Assembly: GCA_001782515.1 (NCBI GenBank)
Contig: MFOV01000008.1
Span: 1 to 37,647 of the forward strand
DNA length: 37,647 nt
Origin: Candidatus Levybacteria bacterium RIFCSPLOWO2_01_FULL_39_10
GTDB taxonomy: Bacteria > Patescibacteriota > Microgenomatia > Levybacterales > UBA12049
Reading direction: 5' to 3'
Of this stretch, positions 19,423-32,317 are shown piece after piece. The translations under genes were made by a program, and so were the position numbers. Under the pieces are notes generated by a model. The model was not told the origin of the DNA, ran no database searches, and saw nothing but the letters and a program-made list of their open reading frames with translations. Every line of letters starts with the position of its first letter. Within the stretch, counting starts at the first letter, position 1.

Positions 19423-19908
19423 ATGGATCCAAAACTGTCCGGGCTTGATCCCAAGCTTCAGGATGCGTATAACCGTGTTATGAGCGGTCCAACTGCTCAG
19501 ACAACAACAACTCCCCCAGGCGCTCAAACAGAGGCAGTAACTGCACCAGCAGGAACAACTCCTGCGCCAGCTGTTGGACCTTCGCCGATGTCAGTAAATC
19601 CTCAACCAAATACAACACTGGGCTACACAGGATTTGACACATCATCAAGCCCTGCTCAGTCGTACTCAAGTGCTGCATCCTACGCAACACCATCGGTTGC
19701 CCCTCCATCTTCGATGGGCTCATCAACTGTTTCATTTAATGCAGGAGGCTCTACATCATCCCAGCCCCAGGGAACGACAGCTGTAAAGAAAAAAGGGTCA
19801 GGACTTATGCCTGTTCTTGTCGGAATACTTATTATTTTTCTTCTGGCAGGATATACCTTTGTGTGGATTTATATTTTTGGAGTCGAGCTACCCTTCATTA
19901 ATTTTTGA
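19423..19908 (+). CDS. Pro/Thr/Ser-rich protein with C-terminal TM anchor
   Basis: Low-complexity P/T/S/A region followed by LMPVLVGILIIFLLAGYTFVWIYIF; overlaps the proS 3' end by 21 nt. Confidence 0.5.
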   Translation: MDPKLSGLDPKLQDAYNRVMSGPTAQTTTTPPGAQTEAVTAPAGTTPAPAVGPSPMSVNPQPNTTLGYTGFDTSSSPAQSYSSAASYATPSVAPPSSMGSSTVSFNAGGSTSSQPQGTTAVKKKGSGLMPVLVGILIIFLLAGYTFVWIYIFGVELPFINF

Positions 19909-21156
19909 AATAACTTGAGAAGCTTCCAATAGCTCTTCTTTTCCTTCTTCTCTTTTTTTTAGCTCGATTTTATCTCCTGACTTTTCCGAAACCACCAGCC
20001 TATATGGAAATCCCAAAAGATCTGCATTTGCAAATTTTTCTCCTGCAGATGTGTCTCTATCATCCCAAAGAACCTCAATGTTGTTTTCGTTCAGCGTTTC
20101 ATAAACTTTCTGTGCTTCTGTGTTTATAGACTTCCCATCCAAACTGATTAAGTAAACCTGAAAAGGTGCGACGCTTTTTGGCCAAATTATGCCGCGCTCA
20201 TCATGGAACACTTCAACAAGTGCGCCTATCACTCTTGTTGGACCGATTCCATAGCTTGCAAACCAAATAGGTTTTTGCTCTCCCCCCTCATCTGTATAAA
20301 AAACTTTCTGGGCTTCAGAATATTTTGTTCCTAGAGGAAAAATATTTCCGACCTCTATTGCTCTTGCTGACTTTATCAAACACCCATCGCTACACCCCGG
20401 ACATTTATTGTCAGGTAAACCTTTATATATTTCTTTATTTTGCGCAAACTTGCACTCGCATTTGTCTTTGCGGTCACAGAATAAAATCTCATCCTCACCC
20501 ACATCTGACACTATCTGAAACTCGTGACTTTTTTTGTCCGTAAACACTCCGCCTGCTGCTTCAACCACTTTAACTTCAGGAAATCCAATTCGCTTAAAAA
20601 CTCTTATATATGCATCTTTTATTTTATTGTAATAATCCGCCATATCCGCCTCTGTTGCGTGTGCAGAATACAAATCTTTCATAAAAAATTCACGGGTTCG
20701 CAAAATTCCGGACTTAGCTCTCGGTTCATTTCTGAATTTAGTTGAGAAGTGATAGACAGCAACAGGAAGATCTTTATAGGACTTAACAAATTTGGATAGA
20801 AGATTCATTACAATTTCCTCGTGAGTAAATGAAAGCCCATACTCTCTCCTGTGCACGTCTTTGAACTGGTACATTATTTTTTGGACCTCAGGGTCAGACC
20901 ATCGGCCTGTCTGATCCCAGATTTCTCGAGGATGCAAAAGAGGCATAAGAAGTTCTTGTGCGCCCTCTGCATTTAATTCTTCTCTTATTATATTTTTTAT
21001 ATTTTCAACTACCCGAAACCCAAGCGGAAGAAGTGTGTAGCTTCCTGCCATAAGCTGATCAATAAATCCACCTTTTGTAAGAAGTATTGCATTTGTTGAT
21101 AAATCCTCTTTAAATTCCTGCTTCCTTGCCTTGGGAAAAAATGTGCTGTACCTCAT
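19888..21156 (-). CDS. proS: proline--tRNA ligase (no full INS editing domain; short Cys-rich insert)
   Basis: Class II motif 2 FRNEPRAKSGILRTREFFMKDLYSAH and motif 3 GIGPTRVIGALVE; anticodon-binding C-terminus; 422 aa. Confidence 0.9.
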   Translation of the reverse strand: MRYSTFFPKARKQEFKEDLSTNAILLTKGGFIDQLMAGSYTLLPLGFRVVENIKNIIREELNAEGAQELLMPLLHPREIWDQTGRWSDPEVQKIMYQFKDVHRREYGLSFTHEEIVMNLLSKFVKSYKDLPVAVYHFSTKFRNEPRAKSGILRTREFFMKDLYSAHATEADMADYYNKIKDAYIRVFKRIGFPEVKVVEAAGGVFTDKKSHEFQIVSDVGEDEILFCDRKDKCECKFAQNKEIYKGLPDNKCPGCSDGCLIKSARAIEVGNIFPLGTKYSEAQKVFYTDEGGEQKPIWFASYGIGPTRVIGALVEVFHDERGIIWPKSVAPFQVYLISLDGKSINTEAQKVYETLNENNIEVLWDDRDTSAGEKFANADLLGFPYRLVVSEKSGDKIELKKREEGKEELLEASQVISKINEG

Positions 21157-21299: not shown

Positions 21300-21329
21300 C
21301 ACACCCTCCGGGTGATCTAGGTTCACACC
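21300..21329. repeat. 30-nt repeat CACACCCTCCGGGTG..GGTTCACACC, copy 1 (spans the gnd stop)
   Basis: Matches 31819-31848 with 4 mismatches; core palindrome CACCC-TCC-GGGTG. Confidence 0.7.
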
Positions 21330-22246
21330 TTTTCTTTTTTTACCTCGTGGCCGCCGAATTCCCGACGAAGTGCAGAGACAAGTTTTGCGGTTGTTGAGTT
21401 TCTGATTTTTTCGTCTGTTTTGGACCGCTTTCGAAAATTTAGTGCTTGTTGGATGTTTTCAACCATTACTCCCTCTTCTTCTGCTGTCTTGACAGTCCAA
21501 TCGCCTTCGCCTGACGCATCAATCTCTCCTATCAAACTTTGATAATCGCCGCGATCCAGAGCATCGCGCATTCTGTCCAGCAAGAATCCAGAAACAATTG
21601 TTCCTTTTTGGAAAATACCTGCAATTTTAGGAAGATCAAACTTGTAATCTGATTTTTCCAATACCTCAAACCCCTCGGATAAACTCTGCATGAGCCCATA
21701 CTCAATACCGTTATGAACCATTTTTATAAAATGCCCTGCACCGCCCTGTCCAAAATATTCATGGCCCCCGTTAGGTTTTGACAGAGAATCTAAAACCGGA
21801 ATTATGTGTTCGTACGCGGATTTCGATCCTCCCACCATAAAAGGATATCCGTTTTTTGATGCAAGAATTCCGCCAGACGTTCCGATGCCTAAATATCGAA
21901 CGCCTATTTTTTCGAATTTCTCATATCGTCTTTCGGTATCGCGATAATTTGAATTTCCTCCGTCAATTATGATGTCGTCTTTTTCTACATACTTTCGAAT
22001 TTCTGTTAAAACTTCATCAACCGCAGTATGCGTCACCATAATCCAAATGATTCTGGGCTTATCCAAACCTTGAACCAGTTGTTTAAGCGATTCACAAACT
22101 TTTAACTTTTCACTTTTAACTTTTAACTTAAGCTCCTCCGAAGAAGCTCTTGACCTATTCCAAACATGAACTTCAAACCTGTCTTTTAAAAGTTTTGGAA
22201 CCATCCCCGATCCTATTTTCCCAAGCCCCACAAATCCTATTTGCAT
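21323..22246 (-). CDS. gnd: 6-phosphogluconate dehydrogenase (decarboxylating), short form
   Basis: NAD(P)-binding GFVGLGKIGSGM, GTSGG and HFIKMVHNGIEYG motifs; 307 aa; contains an in-frame heptamer module. Confidence 0.88.
   Translation of the reverse strand: MQIGFVGLGKIGSGMVPKLLKDRFEVHVWNRSRASSEELKLKVKSEKLKVCESLKQLVQGLDKPRIIWIMVTHTAVDEVLTEIRKYVEKDDIIIDGGNSNYRDTERRYEKFEKIGVRYLGIGTSGGILASKNGYPFMVGGSKSAYEHIIPVLDSLSKPNGGHEYFGQGGAGHFIKMVHNGIEYGLMQSLSEGFEVLEKSDYKFDLPKIAGIFQKGTIVSGFLLDRMRDALDRGDYQSLIGEIDASGEGDWTVKTAEEEGVMVENIQQALNFRKRSKTDEKIRNSTTAKLVSALRREFGGHEVKKEKV
22098..22132. repeat. heptamer module, ACTTTTA family, inside gnd
   Basis: actttta acttttc actttta actttta acttaag; encodes LKLKVKSEKLKV. 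Confidence 0.85.
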
Positions 22247-22269
22247 AATAACTTAGTCTACCAACTTTA

Positions 22270-22298
22270 TTGTTGTTTTAAAAGTGAAATGTTAAACT
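22270..22298 (+). promoter_or_regulatory. candidate leaderless promoter for 22305..22982
   Basis: TTGTTG (22270-22275), 17 nt, TAAACT (22293-22298), 6 nt to ATG. Confidence 0.3.
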
Positions 22299-22304
22299 AA
22301 GGCT

Positions 22305-22982
22305 ATGAAATTTAATCTAGATGATGCTGTTGAAAAAATAAAAAATAATAAAGACTTTCTAAAACTTAAGAAAATTATCGAAAATAACGCAGGCCATGAT
22401 CATGAACCAGTGTATGATCACAGTATAAAAACGTTTGAGATAGCAAATCGGTTAGTAAAAGGTGACTTTATTTTAAATGCTGAAGCGAAAAATATGTTTG
22501 AAAGTTATATAAGACAAGAGGTTGGGGGGATAAAGAAATTAGATTTATTTAAATTCACCGCGCTAATCCACGATATTGGGAAAGTTATCGTTTTCGATGA
22601 TGGTGGAAAGAAAAGAAGTTTGAATATAACTTCTTCTGATGGAATAACATCATCCCCACAACACGGATATTGGGGTTCAAGAATAGTTAAGAACATAACA
22701 AAAGAAGTAGGTTTACCATACGAGGTTATTTCCTATATTGAAAACGTAATTAGACTTCATCTTGCAACAATCGAACATTGGGAAACGGAACATAATATGA
22801 GTGTGGACGAAATTATTTGGGACTCTAAAATAAAATTAGAAAATCTGCACGTTGATGTGCTTTTCAATTTATATTCTGATCTTTATTCTCAGTCTCGTTT
22901 CAAGCCAAAAGAAAAGATTATGATTGAAATCTTTAATAATCCAAATTTTTATAATCCCTTGAAATATTCAATTACTGATTAG
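22305..22982 (+). CDS. HD domain-containing protein
   Basis: H...HD signature: DHSIKTFEIANRL and ALIHDIGK; 225 aa. Confidence 0.7.
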   Translation: MKFNLDDAVEKIKNNKDFLKLKKIIENNAGHDHEPVYDHSIKTFEIANRLVKGDFILNAEAKNMFESYIRQEVGGIKKLDLFKFTALIHDIGKVIVFDDGGKKRSLNITSSDGITSSPQHGYWGSRIVKNITKEVGLPYEVISYIENVIRLHLATIEHWETEHNMSVDEIIWDSKIKLENLHVDVLFNLYSDLYSQSRFKPKEKIMIEIFNNPNFYNPLKYSITD

Positions 22983-23305
22983 ACAACCTCCGCGCCGGTT
23001 TCTACCTCTGAAGTTGGTTCAAGAAGAACTGTTTTGTCCTCGACATCAATTGCCAAGATCATTCCCTGTGATTCCTCGCCTCTTATTTTTCTATATTCCA
23101 AATTTACAACAAAAGGAAAAGTTCTTCCAATTAAATCTTCGGGAGAAAAACTCTCGGCAATTCCTGATATGATTTGGCGTTTAAAATCACCAAAATCAAC
23201 CTGGAGTTTTAGGAGCTTATCGGCTCCGTCGACCCTCTCGCACTCAAGAACCTTCCCCATCCTGATTTCTACCTGTTTGAATTGTTCAAAGGTAACTTTG
23301 CTCAT
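22979..23305 (-). CDS. tRNA-binding domain protein (CsaA / MetRS C-terminal-like)
   Basis: FEQFKQVEIRMGKVLECERVDGADKLLKLQVDFGD...ISGIA...NLEYRKIRGEESQGMILA, the typical OB-fold tRNA-binding pattern. Confidence 0.85.
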   Translation of the reverse strand: MSKVTFEQFKQVEIRMGKVLECERVDGADKLLKLQVDFGDFKRQIISGIAESFSPEDLIGRTFPFVVNLEYRKIRGEESQGMILAIDVEDKTVLLEPTSEVETGAEVV

Positions 23306-23340
23306 AAAACTCTAAATTCTAATATCTAAATCCTAAATAA
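23306..23340. repeat. heptamer module, left flank of the four-helix-bundle gene
   Basis: aaaactc taaattc taatatc taaatcc taaataa; starts directly after the ATG of 22979..23305. Confidence 0.8.
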
Positions 23341-23342
23341 AT

Positions 23343-23704
23343 TCAAATTTTCGAATTCTCCAAAATCTTACCAAATATTTTTCTTAATTGTACGACTTCA
23401 TCTAAAAGTTCTCGTTTTGCGTCATTAAGGCCATTGCTTACATCAATCAAGTTAAGCCAATATTGTGTTTCCTTAGCTTCCTTTCTGCAAATCATAATTC
23501 TCATCAAAAAATCTTTTTTACTTAATGCTTCGTTTGCTTCGACATAATTAGCACCAACTGAACCACTAGATCTTACTAATTGTTTTCCGTCTTCAAAGTT
23601 GGAAACGCTTTTCGGCAGTTTTTTACAAAGTCTCTCGTTTCTTTAGCGAATTTCAAAGTCCTATCTTCTAAATCATATTGTTTTGAATTTTGAGTTTTGA
23701 TCAT
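23343..23704 (-). pseudogene. four-helix-bundle protein (23S rRNA IVS-type) gene with a 1-nt frameshift
   Basis: Frame 1 reads MIKTQNSKQYDLEDRTLKFAKETRDFVKN.. and stops. The shifted frame continues KKLPKSVSNFEDGKQLVRSSGSVGANYVEANEALSKKDFLMRIMICRKEAKETQYWLNLID..., the family signature. The shift is at a 6-nt A run (plus-strand T run 23629-23634); span is 362 nt, which is 3n-1. Confidence 0.8.
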
Positions 23705-23738
23705 TATTTAGAATTTAGTGCTTAGTATTTAGGATTTA
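23704..23738. repeat. heptamer module, right flank of the four-helix-bundle gene, inverted relative to 23306-23340
   Basis: ttattta gaattta gtgctta gtattta ggattta; its reverse complement resembles the left-flank units; overlaps the zwf stop. Confidence 0.8.
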
Positions 23739-25184
23739 TAGCCATCGGCGATTGTCTTTTTCTATAAGCTCTATTCCCTCTTTTGGTCCCCAACTTTCAC
23801 CTTTATAAACAGGCAAATTTTTATCATTTTGCCATTCTTTTAAGACGCTGTCCAAAAGACTCCAGGAATTTTGAATTTCATCCGATCTTGTAAAAAGTGT
23901 CTGGTCTCCTGAAAAAATATCAAGAAGAACCTTTTCATATGCATCAAGACCAACTGTTCCGAAATCATTCTTGTAATCAAAACGCATTCCAACTGTTCCA
24001 AGACTAAGAGTCGGACCAGGACGCTTGGCAATTACCCGAAGTGAGATTCCCTCGTTTGGTTGAATCCTAAATGTCAGAACATTCCCCACCTCAGGACAGC
24101 CGTATTCTTTAAAAAGGATATGGCAAGTTTGAATAAAAACAACTGAGATTGAAATATCATCTCTTTGCATATTTTTGCCGGCTCTAATATAAAAAGGCAC
24201 CCCGGAAAATCTCTCGGTTTCAACTAAAAGTTTCATTGCAGTATAAGTTTCGGTTTGGGAGGCGGGCATGACATTTGCGTCATTTAAATATCCCTCGTAT
24301 TGTCCTCGAACTGCACGGGAATCAGAAAGTTTTACAGCTCCTGTTACTTTTGCTCTTTCTTCTCTTACATCTTCTTTAGTAAAACTTTTTGGCTGCTCCA
24401 TGACAACAGCAGATATTAGCTGCATAATGTGATTTTGTACGACATCTCGCAATATTCCTACTCCGTCAAAAAAACTTCCGCGGTTTCCTATTCCCTCTTT
24501 TTCTGCCCAGGTAATTTGCACGTGGTCTATAAATTTATTATTCCAGACAGGCTCAAAAATACTGTTAGCAAACCGAAATGCTAAAATATTCTGTACTGTT
24601 TCTTTGCCTAGATAATGATCTACTCTAAATATCTGCTCTTCCGCAAATGAACCTGATAATTTTTCCTCCAATGCTTTTGAGTGCTGGAAGTCTTTTCCAA
24701 AAGGTTTCTCAATTATCACCTTGGTGGGACTGTGGCCTTCGTGTCCGCAACTATCAGAAAGCTTAGTTGAAACCATATTATCTAGGATTTCAGAATAATT
24801 TTTAGGGGGAGTCGCTAAGTAAAAAAACCGAGTTAAACATGTTCCCATTTTCTCATCAATTGAATTTAGTTTTTCTATTAAATCCTGGTATCCTTTTTCT
24901 TCTTCAAAAGTGCCCCTAAGATACATTATGTGTTTGGAAAAACTATCCCATTCTTCTTTTTCTTCAAGCTCTTCGAACGATTTTTTAAATTCGCCTTCCG
25001 AATATTCACGCCTGGAAAATCCTAATATATAAAATTCGTCAGGAAGCATTTTTTTGTTATATAAAGAAAGAAGTCCCGGAATCAGTCTTGTATGAGCAAG
25101 ATCTCCTGTTGCTCCAAAAATAACTAAAACGAAAGGGTTTTTAAGATCGGGAAATACCTTTGGGCCACCATCCATAACAATCAT
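23736..25184 (-). CDS. zwf: glucose-6-phosphate 1-dehydrogenase
   Basis: IFGATGDLA NADP site, EKPFG, active-site RVDHYLGKE; 482 aa. Confidence 0.95.
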   Translation of the reverse strand: MIVMDGGPKVFPDLKNPFVLVIFGATGDLAHTRLIPGLLSLYNKKMLPDEFYILGFSRREYSEGEFKKSFEELEEKEEWDSFSKHIMYLRGTFEEEKGYQDLIEKLNSIDEKMGTCLTRFFYLATPPKNYSEILDNMVSTKLSDSCGHEGHSPTKVIIEKPFGKDFQHSKALEEKLSGSFAEEQIFRVDHYLGKETVQNILAFRFANSIFEPVWNNKFIDHVQITWAEKEGIGNRGSFFDGVGILRDVVQNHIMQLISAVVMEQPKSFTKEDVREERAKVTGAVKLSDSRAVRGQYEGYLNDANVMPASQTETYTAMKLLVETERFSGVPFYIRAGKNMQRDDISISVVFIQTCHILFKEYGCPEVGNVLTFRIQPNEGISLRVIAKRPGPTLSLGTVGMRFDYKNDFGTVGLDAYEKVLLDIFSGDQTLFTRSDEIQNSWSLLDSVLKEWQNDKNLPVYKGESWGPKEGIELIEKDNRRWL

Positions 25185-25225
25185 TATATGTACTTGAATA
25201 AATTATTTCAAAGACAAAAAGTGTC

Positions 25226-25254
25226 TTGACAAAAAAATATACCACTAATATACT
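25226..25254 (+). promoter_or_regulatory. sigma70-like promoter, leaderless, for 25264..25689
   Basis: TTGACA (25226-25231), 17 nt, TATACT (25249-25254), 9 nt to ATG. Confidence 0.55.
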
Positions 25255-25263
25255 CTTCAGGAA

Positions 25264-25689
25264 ATGGCAATGGTCGAACAAGAATATTCTCATGCTGTGC
25301 CCCAGGAAACAGTTGAGTCAAGTTTGGATGATCAAATTTTAGGAATTCGAAGTGCTGTACTTGGTTATCTTTCATTTAATGGCGCTGATAATCAATTCAA
25401 CATAGAATACCGAGGAGAAAATGAAAATATTTGGCTTCTTAATATCAGACCAAATGATCCAAGCCAAGATTTTGCACAAATATCATTGGGAGCGCCTGTA
25501 AAAAAAGACGGAAAGCTTTTTGCAGTTATTCATTTTCCGGCTACTCTCAAAAACTCTGGTAAGGATGATTCGGATAATGATTTTGGTCCTATCGCTTTAG
25601 AGGGGCTGGATGCAATTGGGCCAATTAAAAAAGCGCTGTCTCCTATATATGAAGGCCGGCCAAAAATTCGCGTTAATGATCCCGCTTAA
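25264..25689 (+). CDS. hypothetical protein (141 aa)
   Basis: ATG ORF behind a good promoter; no motif recognised. Confidence 0.5.
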   Translation: MAMVEQEYSHAVPQETVESSLDDQILGIRSAVLGYLSFNGADNQFNIEYRGENENIWLLNIRPNDPSQDFAQISLGAPVKKDGKLFAVIHFPATLKNSGKDDSDNDFGPIALEGLDAIGPIKKALSPIYEGRPKIRVNDPA

Positions 25690-26471
25690 ATAATCTGGTC
25701 TGTAATGAGGATTGTTTTTTGAGCAACCTCAGGCTTTTTGTAAAACCTTGCTGGAACATTCGATACATCATCTTGCCCTGAGCCTGTCGAAGGATCAAAC
25801 ATTAACTTTAGCGCTTCCCTTTTCTCTCTTCCCAAAACGAGTATTAATATAAGATCAAGAAGAGAAAGTGCATGGAAATTCATGGTAATTCTCTGCCCAT
25901 ATCCTTCAAGTTCGTAAAAATCAACAAAACCGCTCTGATCCTCCATCATTTTTTTTACGATATTTTCAGAGCTTTGAGTTTTTAGCTTTGAGTTTTTAGC
26001 TCGGGCAGGAATGCCCGCCGTGTGTCCATCATCACCAATTCCTAAAATTCCGACACTTTTTGGAAAATACTCAAAAATAAATCTGAGGGCTTCATCATAT
26101 TCTTTTGTGGTCTGTTCGATATTTTTATCTTGGAGAATTGGATAAAAACGTACATTTTTATTTTCAAAATAAGAAAGAAGTCCAGTTGATCTTATCATCA
26201 GCTCGTTACTGTTTCTCTTATCTTTTGTGGAGTACCTCTCATCAATCAGCCCAACTGCACCTGCTTTTAATGTTTTATCTCCCGCTAATTTTTCATAAAG
26301 CCTCTTAGGGGTTGTTCCGCCTGATAAGAAAAGTGCTGTTTTCTGATCTGAATATTTATTAAGAATTTCTGATAATATCTCGTTTGCTTTTTGAAAAGTT
26401 GGCAATTGCACTACAACAATTCCTTCTTTTTCTGTGAATTGATTAAGCCCTAAAAGATGGGACCTTTGCAT
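25686..26471 (-). CDS. pgl: 6-phosphogluconolactonase
   Basis: LSGGTTP and GIGDDGHTAG motifs of the 6PGL/NagB family; adjacent to zwf and gnd; contains an in-frame heptamer module. Confidence 0.82.
   Translation of the reverse strand: MQRSHLLGLNQFTEKEGIVVVQLPTFQKANEILSEILNKYSDQKTALFLSGGTTPKRLYEKLAGDKTLKAGAVGLIDERYSTKDKRNSNELMIRSTGLLSYFENKNVRFYPILQDKNIEQTTKEYDEALRFIFEYFPKSVGILGIGDDGHTAGIPARAKNSKLKTQSSENIVKKMMEDQSGFVDFYELEGYGQRITMNFHALSLLDLILILVLGREKREALKLMFDPSTGSGQDDVSNVPARFYKKPEVAQKTILITDQII
25969..26003. repeat. heptamer module inside pgl
   Basis: gagcttt gagtttt tagcttt gagtttt tagctcg; encodes AKNSKLKTQSS. Confidence 0.85.
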
Positions 26472-26675
26472 TTGGAGCTAGTATATCAGATTTTCCGCTA
26501 TTTTAGAGGCTTTTAATCTTTGGATTTGAACCTTAAAGCACAGGAGTTAAAGCAGTATCAGAATCTTCTTTCACCCCTCCTCTGATTTTTGCATTGTCAT
26601 ATTTTGATTATAACAGCATTTTGTAAAGTTATTATTAAATTCTTATCAAGATTAAATTCTTTATATGTCCTATAG

Positions 26676-26704
26676 TTGACTTGCATGGAGTATTTTTGTA
26701 TAAT
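26676..26704 (+). promoter_or_regulatory. near-consensus sigma70 promoter of the two-gene GHKL operon
   Basis: TTGACT (26676-26681), 17 nt, TATAAT (26699-26704); ATG 14 nt downstream, no SD. Confidence 0.65.
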
Positions 26705-26718
26705 TCGCGCACCAAAAT

Positions 26719-28476
26719 ATGGTAAAAGAAATTGAACAATTAAGGCAAATTCAGAATCAACGTGACATCTTTTCTTCTCTTGCAGATAAAAGAGAAAAGC
26801 AGCATTCTCAGCTCGGACAAAATCTCGGTCAAGTGGGTATTGAGCGTGATATTAGAATTGGTCAGGTAATGGAAAGAACGCTAAACCGCTGGCAAAGACT
26901 ATCTGAACAAACCGAAGCTCTCGACCAGAAGCTAAATGAGGAGAGCGTTAAAGTGAATGATCAGGTTCAAAAATTAAGAGAATTATCAGAAAGAAATCCA
27001 GTTATCGTTCCGATTGTTACGAGATATGAAGAAGAACTTGTCTCATTAGGTTTTAGAAATATTCCTGAAGTCAAACAAGCCAAACCTGAAAAACCAATTG
27101 AACCCCAACAAACCGAGGAAGTGAAACCTGTAAGGAAAAAAACAGTTGTTGGGAAAAAACCAGATAAAGTGGTAACAAAAGCTGTAAAAGGTGAAGAAGT
27201 CGAACTTCTTTCCGGACAGGAGGTTGTTATAAGTGGAAAGCTTAAATCTGAACTTTTAAAGGCAGTTGATGAAGGAATGTCATCCCCGGAAGGTCTCGCG
27301 GTTAGGATATACGGCGAAGATACACCAGCTAAAAGAAAGGCTTTAAACAAATTAATGAATGCTTTAAATAAGGATCTTTCAGATTTTAGACTCAGGGTAA
27401 TAAATCAGGTCCCACCAAGAGCACGGTTTCAGGGTGTTCAGGCCCGATACAATCTGAGAAGTATCGATGAGCCTCAGCTGCAAATAGCTCCTTGGGCAGA
27501 AGTTATTGAAGCTACGTTACCTAAAGAGCCTGAAGAAATTTTAGCAGAAGGAAGAAGAATTCGAATAGTACCTAAAGAAGAAATAGAAGAGCTTATGAAG
27601 GCGGAAAAACCTTCTGAAAGAAGAGGTTATATAAAAGATTCAGTAATTCTTGGTTTTTATGAGAGGAAACCAAGAAACGTAACACTTCCTAATGGACAAG
27701 TAATTGAAACTGATTCTGCCTGGCCTTATTACTTAGCTCAATTCATTGCAGATGGAACAAATAGTGTTGGTGAAATGGCTGAAAAAGTCTATGGAGAAGA
27801 CAATAAAAAAAATCGAGGAAGAGTAAATGCCGCAATTGCTGCAGCAAATAGAACAATTAAAAACAGTGGGTATAAATTTGCAAATATTACTAGTAGATCT
27901 GATAGCAATAGAGGAATACAATCAAAGTTTGAGTGGCATGACCCAAGTGGCAATGCGGTAATATTAAGGAAACATGAAGTAGTTTTACCTCCAAAAGTTC
28001 CAGATACAATAGCTGAGGTAATAGAAATCCCCTATACCCCATCAGAAGATGAAATAAGATCTGATGAGGAGACAAGGATAGTCATAGCACTAACCTCCAT
28101 GCTTAAAAATAGTTCAGTTATAGATTTTGCAGTACTGCAAAGACTTCTAAGGACCGAGGATAGAATTAAGACGCTACATAGGCAGAGAATGTATAGGCCG
28201 TATCAGGCAGACGAGTTAAGATCTCTGTTTGCCTCTGGGTTAAAAAAATTACAAGAAGAATCGCTCTCGCCCGTTTTAAGAAAATCTTGGACAGAAAATG
28301 ACGAGAAAGCATGGGTCAATATTCAGACACTTGTTGCAAGACTAGCAGGCGGTAACTTTGAAGAATTTATCAAAGAGATACAAAGACTGATAAATAGAGC
28401 GACAAGAGGATTTTATGAGCCTCATGATGGGAAGGCTGTTGAATGGATAAAGCTCCCACCGGGAAACGGAGAATAA
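26719..28476 (+). CDS. coiled-coil protein with two OmpR/PhoB-like winged-helix repeats (585 aa), partner of the GHKL ATPase
   Basis: N-terminal heptad-like coiled coil (aa 1-110), K/P/E-rich linker, gapless internal repeat aa 161-247 versus 321-406 (VELLSGQ/VTLPNGQ, RIYGED/KVYGED, KRKALNKLMNALNKDL/NRGRVNAAIAAANRTI) with a Trans_reg_C-like pattern, then a helical C-terminal domain. Confidence 0.75.
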   Translation: MVKEIEQLRQIQNQRDIFSSLADKREKQHSQLGQNLGQVGIERDIRIGQVMERTLNRWQRLSEQTEALDQKLNEESVKVNDQVQKLRELSERNPVIVPIVTRYEEELVSLGFRNIPEVKQAKPEKPIEPQQTEEVKPVRKKTVVGKKPDKVVTKAVKGEEVELLSGQEVVISGKLKSELLKAVDEGMSSPEGLAVRIYGEDTPAKRKALNKLMNALNKDLSDFRLRVINQVPPRARFQGVQARYNLRSIDEPQLQIAPWAEVIEATLPKEPEEILAEGRRIRIVPKEEIEELMKAEKPSERRGYIKDSVILGFYERKPRNVTLPNGQVIETDSAWPYYLAQFIADGTNSVGEMAEKVYGEDNKKNRGRVNAAIAAANRTIKNSGYKFANITSRSDSNRGIQSKFEWHDPSGNAVILRKHEVVLPPKVPDTIAEVIEIPYTPSEDEIRSDEETRIVIALTSMLKNSSVIDFAVLQRLLRTEDRIKTLHRQRMYRPYQADELRSLFASGLKKLQEESLSPVLRKSWTENDEKAWVNIQTLVARLAGGNFEEFIKEIQRLINRATRGFYEPHDGKAVEWIKLPPGNGE

Positions 28477-28477
28477 G

Positions 28478-30016
28478 ATGAGCCCAGAAAGAACAGCACA
28501 TCAAGGACAGCCACATGATTTAGTAATAAGAGAAGAAATTTCAACTCGTGCAATTGAAGCTCTTATGGCAAATTACAGAGATTCTCAGCAGGCGATTTTG
28601 GATCTTGTTGATAATGCAGTTGATAATAGAATCGAGGGCAAGCCATCTACAATAAGAATCAGGGTCTCAAAAGACGAAATAACAATTACAAATACAGGTG
28701 GCAAAGGTCTTAATTCAGAGGGATTAACAAATTATTTTAAGTGGGGTCATTCTGAAAAAACAGATGCTGAAATTGGTCAATTCGGTGTTGGCGGAAAAGC
28801 TGCAATGGGATTTTTAGGAAGGGGCATGGAAATAACTTGTTCTGCAGACGGTTCAGACACTGAATACCATGTTGAGGATATATCCTGGGAATCAAGATCT
28901 GAAGGATCGCTCAAAGAATTTACGCCGGAAGTTAAAAGAGCAGAATCTGAGGATGGTTATTTTAGAGTAAAAGTAACTGGTCTTAAGAGAGTAATAAATT
29001 CACAAGCGCTCGCAACAAAAATTGGTGATATTTATAGACCATTGCTTCTAGACAGATCAATAATAGCAACGGTAAATGGAAAACCTGTTGAACCAGTTAG
29101 CGTAAACTATGTTGAGGGTAATCCAGAACTAAAATCACAGAAGTATAAACTGGGTACGCGGTTTGGCGATGAAATCGAAGCGGAATTTGGAATACTCCAG
29201 CCAAATCAACGGGTTAAACCAGGAATCAGATGTTATTATAGGGGAAGGCTTATTGAAAGCGAACAATTTTTTGGTCACCCAGGACCTGCGCAGCTTGCCG
29301 GAAGCTCCCGCCTCATTGGCGAAGTACATTTAGACAATGTACCTGTAATACCAAATAAATCATCATTTATTCACAGTAGTTTGGAGTGGGAACAAGCATC
29401 AAGAGCAATACATAATGCCTTGAATCCATGGATGGAGAAAATAGAAAAATTAAGACCAGATTCAAGTGTTAACGTTGAAAGATATGAAAAAGATCTTGCA
29501 AGAAATGCTAAAAGAATTATAGAACATGTTCTTTCAGAATCTGGAATTATCACAAAAGCACTGCTTCCGGGCGGATCGATTGGACGTTTGCCTGCCGAAG
29601 ATCAAGAATCACCGAGACCAAATCCAAAAGGAACACATAAATCTCCAAAATCAATTGAGGGCAGAACTGCCCCTAAACTTCAAGCGCGAGGAGAAACAAA
29701 AAGATGGGGCGCAATGCATCAGGTGGATATAGTTTCTATGGGAAATGATCAAATCAGATCTGTTGTAATAGATGATGAAAAAACAAGAAGAAAGATTTTA
29801 ATAATCAACTCTGATTATCCACTGTACAAAGCGAATAAAAAATTGGGACCTGAGGCTCAAGAACTTTATATGGCTGAAACAATAGCTGCAGAAATATGCA
29901 GATTAGTTACAAAAGATAGATCAGTGGAGGATTATATTGAGATGGTTAACGAAATTATGGGAGATTGCGGAAGAATTATTGGTAGTAGAATAACACGAAG
30001 AAACGCAAGAAATTAA
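28478..30016 (+). CDS. GHKL (Bergerat-fold) ATPase, MORC / HATPase_c_3-like (512 aa)
   Basis: N box AILDLVDNAVDN (aa 39-50), G1-like TNTGGKGL (aa 71-78, non-canonical), G2 IGQFGVGGKAAMGFLG (aa 99-114), then MORC-like IYRPLL...VNGKPVEP and YYRGRLI segments; ATG is 1 nt after the stop of the upstream gene. Confidence 0.8.
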   Translation: MSPERTAHQGQPHDLVIREEISTRAIEALMANYRDSQQAILDLVDNAVDNRIEGKPSTIRIRVSKDEITITNTGGKGLNSEGLTNYFKWGHSEKTDAEIGQFGVGGKAAMGFLGRGMEITCSADGSDTEYHVEDISWESRSEGSLKEFTPEVKRAESEDGYFRVKVTGLKRVINSQALATKIGDIYRPLLLDRSIIATVNGKPVEPVSVNYVEGNPELKSQKYKLGTRFGDEIEAEFGILQPNQRVKPGIRCYYRGRLIESEQFFGHPGPAQLAGSSRLIGEVHLDNVPVIPNKSSFIHSSLEWEQASRAIHNALNPWMEKIEKLRPDSSVNVERYEKDLARNAKRIIEHVLSESGIITKALLPGGSIGRLPAEDQESPRPNPKGTHKSPKSIEGRTAPKLQARGETKRWGAMHQVDIVSMGNDQIRSVVIDDEKTRRKILIINSDYPLYKANKKLGPEAQELYMAETIAAEICRLVTKDRSVEDYIEMVNEIMGDCGRIIGSRITRRNARN

Positions 30017-30017
30017 T

Positions 30018-31127
30018 TTATGGAAGAATTGATTCTCCTGATATTATTCTTAAAATATCTTTGTAAGAAATAAAGGCAAGAAAACTTAGGAGTAAAAATA
30101 TTCCAATCATGTGAGCATATGCTTCAAATTTTGGACTGACTTTTCGCCCAGTTACAGCCTCAATCATAATAAACAGCAATCGTCCGCCATCAAGTGCCGG
30201 AATCGGAAGAATATTAAGAACCGCAAGCGAGAGACTTAACATATAAACAAGCGCCAAAACCGCGTTTGGTCCAACTTGGACGAATTCCCCCGTAAGCTGT
30301 GCCATACCAATCGGACCTGCAACCCCTTCAGGTAATGTGAGTTTTGTAATAAGCGTTACCATCATGTCTTTAAAAGCAAATACAACTCGGGCGCTGTCCT
30401 CTCCTGCCTGCTTAAATCCATAAAATAAACTCTTCGGGAACGGATATTTCGCAACTTCGATGTTTTGAGAGATTGCGATTCCCATCGGCCCTTGATCTTT
30501 TGGAAATTCTTTTCTTGGCGTAACATTAATTATCTTAAGACTTCCTTCTCTTTGGACAACTATTGTTATTTCTTGTCCCAGATTTTTGCGGGTCTCAGAA
30601 ACTAGAGTTTCGGAATCAGTAATTTTAGTGCCGTTGATTTCTCGTATTAAATCGTCTTTTTTAAGCCCTGATATTTGGGCGGGAGTGTTAGCAACAATTT
30701 CTGTTACTCTAATATCCTGCCCGGGCGTTGGTATTCCCTCAAACGTCAAAAGATATGTTGCAATTACAACTGCCAGGAGAAAATTCATTACAACTCCGGC
30801 AACAACAACAATTGCCCTTTGGTATTTTGGTCGTGCAAAAAAAGCTCTATCCAAATCAGCTGATGGCTTATGGCTAATGGCTAATGGCTTAATTTTGCCT
30901 CCGCCTGCCTCATCTTCACCATAAAGCTTTACAAATCCGCCTATGGGAAGTGCATTTATCGAATAAATTGTTTCTCCCTTTTTTTTGCTCCAAATTCTGG
31001 GCGGGAAGCCAAAGCCGAATTCCTCAATTTTTATTCCGAATTTTCGAGCTGTCAGATAGTGACCAAGTTCGTGAATTAAAACAAGAATTGTAAGAATTAC
31101 TAAAAAGGTAAAGATGGTAAGTAGCAT
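30018..31127 (-). CDS. rseP: RIP metalloprotease RseP (site-2 protease, M50)
   Basis: HELGHY zinc motif in the first TM helix, PDZ domain, C-terminal NILPIPALDGG motif; contains a heptamer module. Confidence 0.92.
   Translation of the reverse strand: MLLTIFTFLVILTILVLIHELGHYLTARKFGIKIEEFGFGFPPRIWSKKKGETIYSINALPIGGFVKLYGEDEAGGGKIKPLAISHKPSADLDRAFFARPKYQRAIVVVAGVVMNFLLAVVIATYLLTFEGIPTPGQDIRVTEIVANTPAQISGLKKDDLIREINGTKITDSETLVSETRKNLGQEITIVVQREGSLKIINVTPRKEFPKDQGPMGIAISQNIEVAKYPFPKSLFYGFKQAGEDSARVVFAFKDMMVTLITKLTLPEGVAGPIGMAQLTGEFVQVGPNAVLALVYMLSLSLAVLNILPIPALDGGRLLFIMIEAVTGRKVSPKFEAYAHMIGIFLLLSFLAFISYKDILRIISGESILP
30855..30889. repeat. heptamer module inside rseP
   Basis: atcagct gatggct tatggct aatggct aatggct; encodes KPLAISHKPSAD. 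Confidence 0.85.
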
Positions 31128-31870: not shown

Positions 31871-32317
31871 TTAAAGTTCAAGTCTACTAAACTCACGAAC
31901 AACTATGTTCTCACCTAGTTTACCTATAGTTTGCTTAATTAATTGTTCGATTGTTAATGAACTATCGCGAATGTACTCTTGTCTTAGAAGTCCGTCAACA
32001 TCTTTTGGATTCATTGCTGAAACTTGAAGCGCTATTTCATGAGCCAGATTTTTGAATTCAGTTGTTCTTGCAACAAAATCAGTTTCACAAGTCACTATCA
32101 CCAAAACCCCTACTTTTCTCTGATGAACATAGCTTTCAACTATTCCCTGAAGCGTTTCGCGGTCTTGTTTTTTCTCAGCTTTTTCTATTCCTTTTTTCTT
32201 CAAAAACTCAAGCGCTTTACTGTAATTACCTTTTGCCTCATCAAGAACCTCTCTGCAATCCGCTATACTTGCGCTTGTTTCTTCTCTTAATTTTTTAATC
32301 TGGTCAATATCTGCCAT
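31871..32317 (-). CDS. tsf: elongation factor Ts (short form)
   Basis: N-terminal UBA-like IKKLREETSASIADCREVLDEA..., core TCETDFVART; 148 aa. Confidence 0.9.
   Translation of the reverse strand: MADIDQIKKLREETSASIADCREVLDEAKGNYSKALEFLKKKGIEKAEKKQDRETLQGIVESYVHQRKVGVLVIVTCETDFVARTTEFKNLAHEIALQVSAMNPKDVDGLLRQEYIRDSSLTIEQLIKQTIGKLGENIVVREFSRLEL

Follow-up and report, generated by a model that had tools for sequence, protein, structure and literature searches.

A pair of adjacent genes in a 37,647 nt stretch of DNA from Candidatus Levybacteria bacterium RIFCSPLOWO2_01_FULL_39_10 (contig MFOV01000008.1; the whole stretch is referred to below as the window) encodes a putative adaptor protein (gene 1) and a predicted ATPase of the MORC type with GHKL and S5 domains (gene 2). 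The explanation that we favour, and to which we would give about an even chance of being correct, is that the two form a long-resident module of a few Microgenomates-type bacteria of the candidate phyla radiation (CPR), in which an ATP-driven DNA clamp and a sequence-specific adaptor would act in regulation or silencing and not in restriction-type defence. The genes are strictly co-conserved and translationally coupled. Both kinds of protein are familiar, and what appears to be new is the pairing of such an ATPase with a tandem winged-helix partner and with no nuclease or helicase. An earlier note, made from the sequence of the region alone, had drawn attention to the pair, and several of its claims are taken up below. 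The positions of the features discussed are collected in Table 1.

The product of gene 2 matches the Pfam family HATPase_c_3 with 36.7 bits, against a gathering cut-off of 25, and an AlphaFold2 (AF2) model of it, built on an alignment of 48 homologues, has a mean predicted local distance difference test score (pLDDT) of 85.4 and a predicted template modelling score (pTM) of 0.79. The model consists, in order, of a GHKL domain, an S5-like domain, two long helices (residues 302-355), a disordered linker and a compact α/β C-terminal domain (residues 415-511). When it was compared with the PDB using Foldseek, the leading matches were MORC4 (E 4e-15), MORC3, TRAP1, SMCHD1 and MORC2, with many GHKL structures at a probability of 1.00; alignments of approximately 380-400 columns span both the GHKL and the S5 domains. 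A profile of the family searched against the PDB sequences returned, at E <= 0.01, only MORC4 (1.8e-13), MORC3, SMCHD1 and MORC2, and Morc6_S5 of Pfam is recognized in 10 of 49 family members. The same Foldseek comparison with viral structures finds generic GHKL proteins only (rIIA, topoisomerase II and Hsp90). The GHKL boxes read DLVDNAVDN, TNTGGKGL and GQFGVGGKAAMG, and the Bergerat boxes and MORC-like fold that the earlier note had recognized in gene 2 are borne out by HATPase_c_3, AF2, Foldseek and the PDB profile alike. As far as sequence and model can tell, gene 2 is a MORC-type GHKL+S5 ATPase, its activity being predicted. The C-terminal α/β domain has no Pfam match in the 49 members, and neither a CW zinc finger nor any further Pfam domain is found in gene 2 or in these relatives. 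The disordered linker (29540-29720, residues ~356-414) contains a conserved motif, EGxTAPxLxA...KRWGA, in which T397, P399, A403 and R409 are nearly invariant, and which could be either a docking peptide or a DNA contact.

The presence of TRAP1 and Hsp90 among the top Foldseek matches (E ~1e-14) raises the question of an Hsp90-like chaperone, for which the gene 1 protein would be a co-chaperone or a client. The TRAP1/Hsp90 alignments, however, have root-mean-square deviations above 20 Å over stretched lengths, the PDB profile search gave MORCs and SMCHD1 and no Hsp90 at the above threshold, the Pfam families matched are HATPase_c_3 and Morc6_S5, and the partner is a predicted DNA-binding protein; we regard a chaperone as scarcely credible.

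For the assignment of individual residues gene 2 was aligned with MORC4 and MORC3, the roles were taken from the MORC2 structure paper (PMC5811534), and conservation was counted over 223 non-redundant family members. Motif I, D42-L-V-D-N46-A-V-D49, aligns with 'AELIDNAYD' of MORC3 and MORC4. The correspondences are D42 with MORC2 Glu35 (general base), N46 with Asn39 (Mg2+), T73 with Asp68 (which hydrogen-bonds adenine N6 in MORC2; PMC5811534), G75 and G77 with Gly70 and Gly72 (G1 box), G100, G103 and G105 with Gly98, Gly101 and Gly103 (G2 box), K107 with Lys105 (α-phosphate), and K294 with Lys427 (transducer, γ-phosphate). N46, G75 and G77 are invariant, as is N293-K294 (K294 in all 223 members), and G100, G103, G105 and G106 of motif III, together with K107, are invariant or nearly so. 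Two positions had been flagged in the earlier note as atypical, and both are real. Position 42 is Glu or Asp in 222 of the 223 sequences, the remaining one having an alignment gap; Asp is present in 35 of 88 CPR-type members and Glu in 134 of the 135 others. At position 73, which corresponds to the motif II Asp, an Asp is never found and the residue varies among Q, E, R, H, V, I and T, such that the glycines of D-x-G-x-G are kept and the Asp is absent. Judged from the alignment, Asp42 is a lineage variant that retains the acid, the loss of the motif II Asp is a family-wide trait, and the residues predicted to handle Mg2+, phosphate and water are intact.

These substitutions bear on whether gene 2 might be a catalytically impaired scaffold (a pseudo-ATPase), or an enzyme for another nucleotide, that forms a static DNA-bridging complex, a possibility that overlaps with the model we favour. 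It would account for a position 73 that is variable and never Asp in 223 members, and for a general base that is Asp and not Glu in the window protein. Set against it are the invariance or near-invariance of N46, G75, G77, G100, G103, G105, K107 and K294 and the retention of an acid at position 42; since the residues for Mg2+, phosphate and water are conserved, a dead enzyme would be unexpected, whereas a changed base specificity would be compatible with the pattern. We consider the scaffold quite improbable.

The gene 1 protein as a whole has no match in Pfam, NCBIfam, PHROGs, PADLOC or the PDB sequences, and an exhaustive HMMER search of 1.84 billion proteins places its family at 94 representative clusters, with lengths of ~370-1048 aa and, in nearly all of them, a conserved domain at the C-terminus. 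A self-comparison of the protein gives its best diagonal at an offset of exactly 160, with a gapless BLOSUM62 score of 77 as compared with 36.6 +/- 5.2 (maximum 51) in 100 shuffles, and the internal duplication at a distance of 160 aa that the earlier note had described is thereby confirmed; aligned with each other by BLASTP, the two repeats have an E-value of 2e-7 at 23% identity. A hidden Markov model (HMM) seeded on both repeats and iterated over the related loci finds one to three copies per partner protein elsewhere. That these are winged helices of the OmpR/PhoB type, as also proposed earlier, is supported by family-level matches, by profile alignment and by topology. Trans_reg_C matches 3 of 19 repeat units (best 1.5e-7) and 23 of 67 members of the gene 1 family (best 1.3e-14), the window gene 1 protein itself having no match to this Pfam family, and in an hhalign comparison the repeat profile aligns in register with a Pfam-confirmed Trans_reg_C domain of a response regulator (E 0.0038). 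In the AF2 model repeat 2 (pLDDT 70-78) has strands at 319-322 and 328-331, helices at 335-344, 350-358 and 363-383, and strands at 386-389 and 403-407, which is the β-β-α-α-α-β-β order expected of the OmpR/PhoB fold; repeat 1 is modelled less well. Two other identities were considered for gene 1 and rejected, namely a Topo VI-A/Spo11-like protein (a Toprim domain is lacking, and the winged helices belong to the Trans_reg_C type) and an SMC 'kite' of the ScpB/MukE kind (the winged helices again being of the Trans_reg_C type).

The remaining parts of the gene 1 protein lie on either side of these repeats. An N-terminal coiled coil had been proposed, and of this the helical hairpin stands, as predicted by AF2, although the coiled coil is to be graded only as probable; the segment gives weak Foldseek matches to coiled-coil hairpins and is conserved in P0089 and in some of the representatives. 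The C-terminal domain, which the earlier note did not mention, is the sole part of gene 1 that is conserved in all upstream partners. Neither Pfam nor the PDB contains a relative of it, a PDB profile search giving only designed helical proteins, and it is most likely a docking domain for the ATPase. Foldseek of the whole gene 1 model gave nothing meaningful (best E 0.9).

A HATPase-superfamily gene beside an OmpR/PhoB-type gene mimics the layout of a histidine kinase and its response regulator, and gene 2 could on this account serve as a kinase, or as a sensor of nucleotides, by which an OmpR-type transcription factor is modified or gated. Weak HATPase_c matches and the existence of HEF_HK, a family derived from paraMORC (PMC8011034), would fit such a role, and the altered adenine pocket could reflect sensing. 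Pfam, however, finds no HisKA/DHp, HEF_HK, Response_reg (receiver) or Response_reg_2 domain in gene 1, gene 2 or the 49 + 67 family members; moreover, an S5 transducer with an invariant lysine is typical of dimerizing ATPases and not of kinases, and the structural and profile neighbours of gene 2 are MORCs. A signalling system of the two-component kind is thus very unlikely.

Homologues of gene 2 number 87 by a word-indexed search, with 104 relatives in a scan of one genome per species and 402 in a metagenome scan; the window ATPase is itself missing among its homologues, its 90% cluster being represented by a 264-aa fragment. Members of the CPR class have at least 37% identity to the window protein and come from Levybacteria, Curtissbacteria, Daviesbacteria and other metagenome-assembled genomes (MAGs). 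An HMM of the gene 1 C-terminal domain finds a gene encoding it directly upstream of the ATPase gene in all 19 non-redundant loci of this class, with junctions that vary between a 4-nt overlap and a 6-nt gap, and the suspicion that the two genes belong together as a pair, raised when the locus was first noticed, is upheld by this co-conservation. Across 15 non-redundant CPR loci no neighbour family recurs other than the partner family, and there is no third component. Eight CPR loci have additional paralogues in which the winged-helix and N-terminal parts are present and the C-terminal domain is lacking, and these are never found at the -1 position to the ATPase gene. The second class is much larger, is ~30% identical over the full length, and is found in Chloroflexota, Dormibacterota, Limnocylindria and one spore-former-like contig. 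Its ATPases stand alone: the iterated C-terminal-domain HMM finds nothing in ~135 Chloroflexota/Dormibacterota-type relatives, and all-against-all clustering and Pfam scans of the neighbours reveal no conserved partner in these loci. The neighbours are a mixture of ABC transporters, PIN and Fic toxins, response regulators, housekeeping genes and one C5 methylase, and among 148 neighbours in 38 such loci no nuclease or helicase recurs and there is one methylase. The statement in the earlier note that no nuclease, helicase or methylase can be recognized holds more widely, in that none accompanies the pair or recurs with it.

At L008 (5586-8004) the partner is split into overlapping ORFs (open reading frames) of 698 and 117 aa, with the C-terminal domain in the second, which reflects a frameshift, a pseudogene or an assembly error. 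A single Curtissbacteria MAG (MFBU01; L010 and L020) contains both family types; its CPR-type ATPase has a partner and is 55% identical to the window protein, and its Chloroflexota-type copy stands alone, is 31% identical, and is preceded at ~0.5 kb by a C5 cytosine methylase encoded on the opposite strand. P0086, a highly diverged relative (25% identical; L175/L176, 744-4035), occupies a position by PPIase, nrdR and RNR genes as in L001, L007 and L096, and a 530-aa gene overlaps the start of the ATPase gene there. The C-terminal-domain HMM is silent for this 530-aa gene, the partner being either too diverged for detection or replaced.

The pair had been described as inserted between pgl and rseP, a description that comparison with related genomes does not support. 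A block composed of the pair, rseP, frr, tsf and rpsB is retained in four other genomes (five with the window). In L012, from Levybacteria, it consists of exactly these genes, with identities to the window of 52% for the ATPase, 50.5% for rseP, 57% for frr, 60% for tsf and 51% for rpsB. L090/L091 has a 214-aa gene between rseP and frr (ATPase 57%, gene 1 35%, rseP 67% and frr 84% identity), L177 has one extra gene between the pair and rseP (ATPase 52%), and L178 has the order pgl, msrB, pair, one extra gene and rseP, with frr farther downstream (ATPase 55%), so that pgl too is upstream of the pair in that genome. The divergence of the ATPase is approximately that of its housekeeping neighbours. 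In Curtissbacteria rseP is located upstream of the pair instead, and the other synteny classes (PPIase/nrdR/RNR, rnc, rplA|rplJ and BipA) are all housekeeping contexts. No insertion scars are evident at the window locus, which has no flanking direct or inverted repeats beyond chance, no tRNA genes and no Rfam family. The family is absent from the phage collection, and searches of plasmids and IMG/VR gave only one weak partial match, to a haloarchaeal megaplasmid, and four weak partial matches respectively. L012 does not have, at this position, the pentose-phosphate cluster that precedes the pair in the window, yet it shares both the gene preceding that cluster (window 19888-21156) and the pair-rseP block, and it is thus the pentose-phosphate cluster and not the pair that is the variable segment between the two genomes. 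From the synteny, the divergence and the lack of mobile hallmarks we conclude that the pair is an old, vertically retained chromosomal resident, sporadic in the wider group, and not a recent island. Y1_Tnp genes (IS200/IS605-type or RAYT-like) are located within a few kb of the pair in L002, L007, L009 and L175, and L009 also has a PIN toxin pair just upstream.

These data also bear on the possibility of nuclease-free defence or xenogeneic silencing, in which fast-evolving winged-helix arrays would recognize phage, plasmid or transposon DNA and the ATPase would compact or occlude that DNA or set off an abortive response. In prokaryotes, MORC and paraMORC proteins are associated for the most part with systems resembling restriction-modification (R-M) (PMC2292703), and paraMORC3 is at present counted among the Shedu defence nucleases (PMC12137116). 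The distribution of the family is sporadic, the winged-helix repeats differ greatly in number and in sequence, paralogues are expanded locally, and some Chloroflexota-type relatives are located beside PIN/Fic toxins and one beside a C5 methylase, all of which would be in keeping with defence. There are also weak PADLOC matches: in PADLOC-DB v2.0.0, gene 2 is matched only by TmtA (E 6e-4, residues 40-105) and gene 1 by nothing, and within the family only the N-terminal motif of TmtA is found, in 13 of 49 members (best E 5.5e-7). These matches, however, involve nothing beyond a GHKL motif of ~66 aa in a profile of 1538 positions, and no defence system is matched by the pair in this search, which the earlier note had proposed. 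Nor is there a recurrent nuclease, helicase or methylase. The CPR loci are situated amid housekeeping genes and are syntenic across genomes in which rpsB and rseP are only 50-67% identical, unlike the turnover of defence islands, and phages, plasmids and IMG/VR contigs do not carry the family beyond the weak partial matches noted above. We consider a role in defence unlikely.

Expression of the pair appears to be under a conserved promoter. The earlier note had identified a TTGACT-17-TATAAT sequence upstream of gene 1 and had found no terminator; both observations are confirmed, this being the best promoter-like site of the region, and there is no terminator-like plus-strand site 3′ of gene 2. 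The ATG of gene 1 is 14 nt downstream of the end of the -10 box and has no Shine-Dalgarno sequence, and a near-leaderless gene 1 mRNA is therefore predicted; the GGAG within gene 1 indicates translational coupling of gene 2. Orthologous promoters have the same architecture, with distances from -10 to ATG of 17 nt in L090, 14 nt in L178 and 11 nt in L008, and a block of the form CCYATAGTTGAC-N17-TATAAT-x-C is invariant across five of them, their flanks not being conserved, a pattern that shows selection on the promoter. The 12-mer CCTATAGTTGAC, which contains a CTATAG core, occurs exactly once in the window. A conserved element, (A)ACTATAGG or CCTATAG, is present in the promoters of partner genes and their paralogues. 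Counted on both strands, the CCTATAG core occurs six times in 14 x 130 nt (1,820 nt) upstream of partner genes, whereas 0.14 occurrences are expected from the remainder of the same loci (P ~1e-8), and among the 13 copies located between genes in 223 kb, 11 lie ahead of genes of the ATPase clusters. Copies either abut the -35 box or are found as TAnACTATAGGGC 12-15 nt before the ATG. The CTATAG element is a candidate operator for the winged-helix protein, or it could mark a special promoter class. A direct repeat, two copies of ATTAAATTCTT at a spacing of 17 nt (26634-26661), is located just upstream of the -35 box and was rejected as a meaningful element, with nine near-matches in the window as compared with 5.4 expected, which is not significant.

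Our proposal for the mechanism of the clamp and its adaptor is drawn by analogy from MORC2, MutL and GyrB (PMC5811534, PMC12216690, PMC2292703), and from it we infer a physical interaction of the two proteins, the clamping of DNA, the target sites and the biological role (in gene regulation or the organization of the chromosome, as against the silencing of foreign DNA) in the following form. The N-terminal helical hairpin of the adaptor would probably mediate self-association, and its winged helices would recognize specific DNA sites, one candidate being the CTATAG-containing element at its own promoter, which would lead to autoregulation. The adaptor would recruit the ATPase through its C-terminal domain, and nucleotide-driven dimerization of the ATPase N-termini would then close a clamp or loop on the DNA. 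The outcome would be local compaction, occlusion or transcriptional silencing, without cleavage of DNA. A more specific version, which we put forward tentatively and hold to be somewhat unlikely, is that the pair is the bacterial counterpart of transcription-factor-recruited MORC silencing, with a tandem winged-helix adaptor that loads a nuclease-free GHKL clamp, and possibly with a non-canonical nucleotide or binding mode.

Several observations weigh against a regulatory clamp. ATP binding is not to be assumed, since the motif II Asp that contacts adenine N6 in MORC2 is absent from all 223 sequences. The Chloroflexota-type relatives have no such partner, which argues that the partner is not intrinsic to the activity of the ATPase. 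The CTATAG sequence may belong to the promoter as such, as opposed to being an operator, since it occupies two different positions relative to the promoter. The family is sporadic, with only ~5 CPR-type matches among 185,579 species representatives, a distribution that would suit an accessory role no less than a regulatory one. Finally, the AF2 model of gene 1 is poor (a two-row alignment, pLDDT 50), and the C-terminal domain to which docking is attributed is without a known relative.

Table 1. Coordinates of the two genes, their domains and the associated signals (window positions unless a locus is named; domain functions are predicted)
Feature	Position	Strand	Remarks
Sigma-70-type promoter TTGACT-17-TATAAT	26676..26704	+	11 of 12 consensus positions; top site in 26300-30300
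CCTATAGTTGAC conserved element	26669..26680	+	CTATAG core abutting/overlapping -35 box; candidate operator or promoter extension
(A)ACTATAGG/CCTATAG sites	26669-26680; L090 722; L012 8030; L178 ~2537; L177; L010 5665; L099 809; L003 3503, 5447; L007 4712; L001 3254		one mismatch in L177
Gene 1	26719..28476	+	ORF, 585 aa; putative adaptor protein
N-terminal helical hairpin, probable coiled coil	26719..27048	+	gene 1 aa 1-110; AF2 helices 2-38, 45-92, 94-109, pLDDT ~72
Winged-helix repeat 1, OmpR/PhoB-type	27199..27450	+	gene 1 aa 161-244 (HMM boundaries)
Winged-helix repeat 2, OmpR/PhoB-type	27679..27930	+	gene 1 aa 321-404 (HMM boundaries)
All-helical C-terminal domain	28015..28452	+	gene 1 aa 433-578, ~145 aa; family-specific
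GGAG Shine-Dalgarno sequence for gene 2	28468..28471	+	within last gene 1 codons, 6 nt before ATG
Gene 2	28478..30016	+	ORF, 512 aa; MORC-type GHKL+S5 ATPase (predicted)
Bergerat-fold ATP-binding domain	28526..28987	+	gene 2 aa ~17-170; key residues D42, N46, T73, G75, G77, G100, G103, G105, K107
S5-fold transducer domain	29000..29377	+	gene 2 aa ~175-300; N293-K294, aligned to MORC3/MORC4 'NKQDF'
C-terminal α/β domain	29720..30010	+	gene 2 aa ~415-511; AF2 pLDDT ~90 over 415-505; conserved among homologues

The layout of the pair reported by the earlier note (ORF coordinates, 1-nt junctions and a 247-nt spacer) is reproduced throughout. One nucleotide separates the stop codon of gene 1 from the ATG of gene 2, 247 nt separate gene 1 from the start of the divergent pgl gene, and the stop codons of gene 2 (30016) and of the convergent rseP (30018) have 1 nt between them. 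The neighbouring genes named in that note, zwf, pgl, rseP (M50 plus PDZ), frr, tsf and rpsB, are verified by Pfam matches, with gnd and glyA farther out. The pair had also been presented as the plus-strand exception in its surroundings, which is correct as to the strand of both genes, although the plus strand has a further predicted ORF nearby (25264-25689). This ORF, of 141 aa, is located between zwf and pgl, shares 4 nt with the 3′ end of pgl and has no Pfam match. Together with gnd, an HD-domain gene, zwf and pgl it makes up the oxidative pentose-phosphate cluster upstream of the pair (21323-26471). Both GC and AT skew flip sign across 26.5-30 kb, as expected for plus-strand coding amid minus-strand genes. 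The tsf gene (31871-32317, minus strand) encodes only 148 aa, and because its match to Pfam EF_TS covers positions 1-76 of a profile of 204 the product is a truncated EF-Ts; the orthologues in L012, L090 and L177 are similarly short (149-150 aa).

To our knowledge, nearly all that is known of bacterial MORC and paraMORC ATPases comes from comparative genomics, where they are tied to restriction-like nuclease and helicase systems. The manner in which eukaryotic MORCs are directed to their targets is still under study, and the regulatory repertoire of CPR bacteria is poorly known. The module described here would be a minimal two-protein MORC, with a targeting adaptor that has a private docking domain and a GHKL+S5 engine encoded by separate genes, and its reconstitution in vitro should be feasible. 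The analysis also defines a sizeable uncharacterized GHKL family, with ~400 relatives in one metagenome scan plus the CPR subfamily, of which the stand-alone members are widespread in soil Chloroflexota and Dormibacterota. This family breaks the supposedly universal D-x-G-x-G and yet retains every other catalytic residue, and it thus offers a natural test case for nucleotide recognition by the Bergerat fold. If the pair is a regulator or silencer, an ATP-dependent layer would be added to CPR chromatin biology; if it is a counterpart of MORC silencing, ATP-dependent chromatin control of the MORC type would exist in bacteria independently of restriction-modification, and in reduced CPR genomes.

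A comparison with described systems places the pair near several of these, and in the literature that we searched no GHKL/MORC protein paired with a tandem Trans_reg_C protein is described. With two-component systems, and with the elements that combine Response_reg_2 with HEF_HK, a paraMORC-derived kinase-like family that has an N-terminal HATPase_c_3 domain (PMC8011034), it shares a HATPase-superfamily gene that adjoins a Trans_reg_C winged-helix gene; the partner differs from theirs in consisting of two or three tandem winged helices and a novel C-terminal domain. An N-terminal GHKL ATPase domain is also present in Tiamat TmtA and in the type I-D Shedu proteins, such as VcSduA, that correspond to paraMORC3, now classed as a Shedu defence nuclease (PMC12137116). 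The DUF4263 PD-(D/E)xK nuclease that Shedu requires is, however, absent from gene 1, gene 2 and the family, and the likeness to Tiamat is confined to the short TmtA segment noted above (~66 residues of 1538).

The MORC and paraMORC1-5 families of prokaryotes, associated for the most part with R-M-like systems, were described by Iyer, Abhiman and Aravind in 2008 (PMC2292703). They too are bacterial GHKL+S5 proteins with a family-specific C-terminal extension, and some paraMORCs stand alone, as do the Chloroflexota-type relatives found here. They are defined by their context, which includes superfamily II (SFII) helicases, nucleases of the restriction-fold, HNH or HKD types and methylases, or by fusion to a nuclease or TIR domain (PMC2292703), whereas no such context or fusion recurs in the family described here, which is set apart from paraMORC1-5 by description and not by reference sequences. 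That paper does not mention pairing with a tandem OmpR-type winged-helix protein; 'winged' does not occur in it, and 'HTH' occurs once, in a figure legend.

The closest structures, and the sole PDB profile matches, are those of eukaryotic MORC2, MORC3, MORC4 and SMCHD1, in which, as in gene 2, an N-terminal GHKL domain is followed by an S5 transducer; gene 2 keeps motif I, the glycines of the G1 box, the G2 box including its Lys, and the Lys of the transducer of MORC2, MORC3 and MORC4. Unlike eukaryotic MORCs and SMCHD1, gene 2 has no CW zinc finger, chromodomain or SMC hinge; although long helices are present (residues 302-355), its C-terminal α/β domain is unrelated to theirs, and it does not have the motif II Asp. 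In eukaryotes MORC2 is an ATP-dependent dimerizing machine for DNA compaction (PMC5811534, PMC12216690), and by analogy nucleotide-driven dimerization of the N-termini on DNA is probably common to the MORCs and gene 2. The targeting of DNA, on the other hand, would come from a separate winged-helix partner gene and not, as in eukaryotic MORCs, from histone-reading domains.

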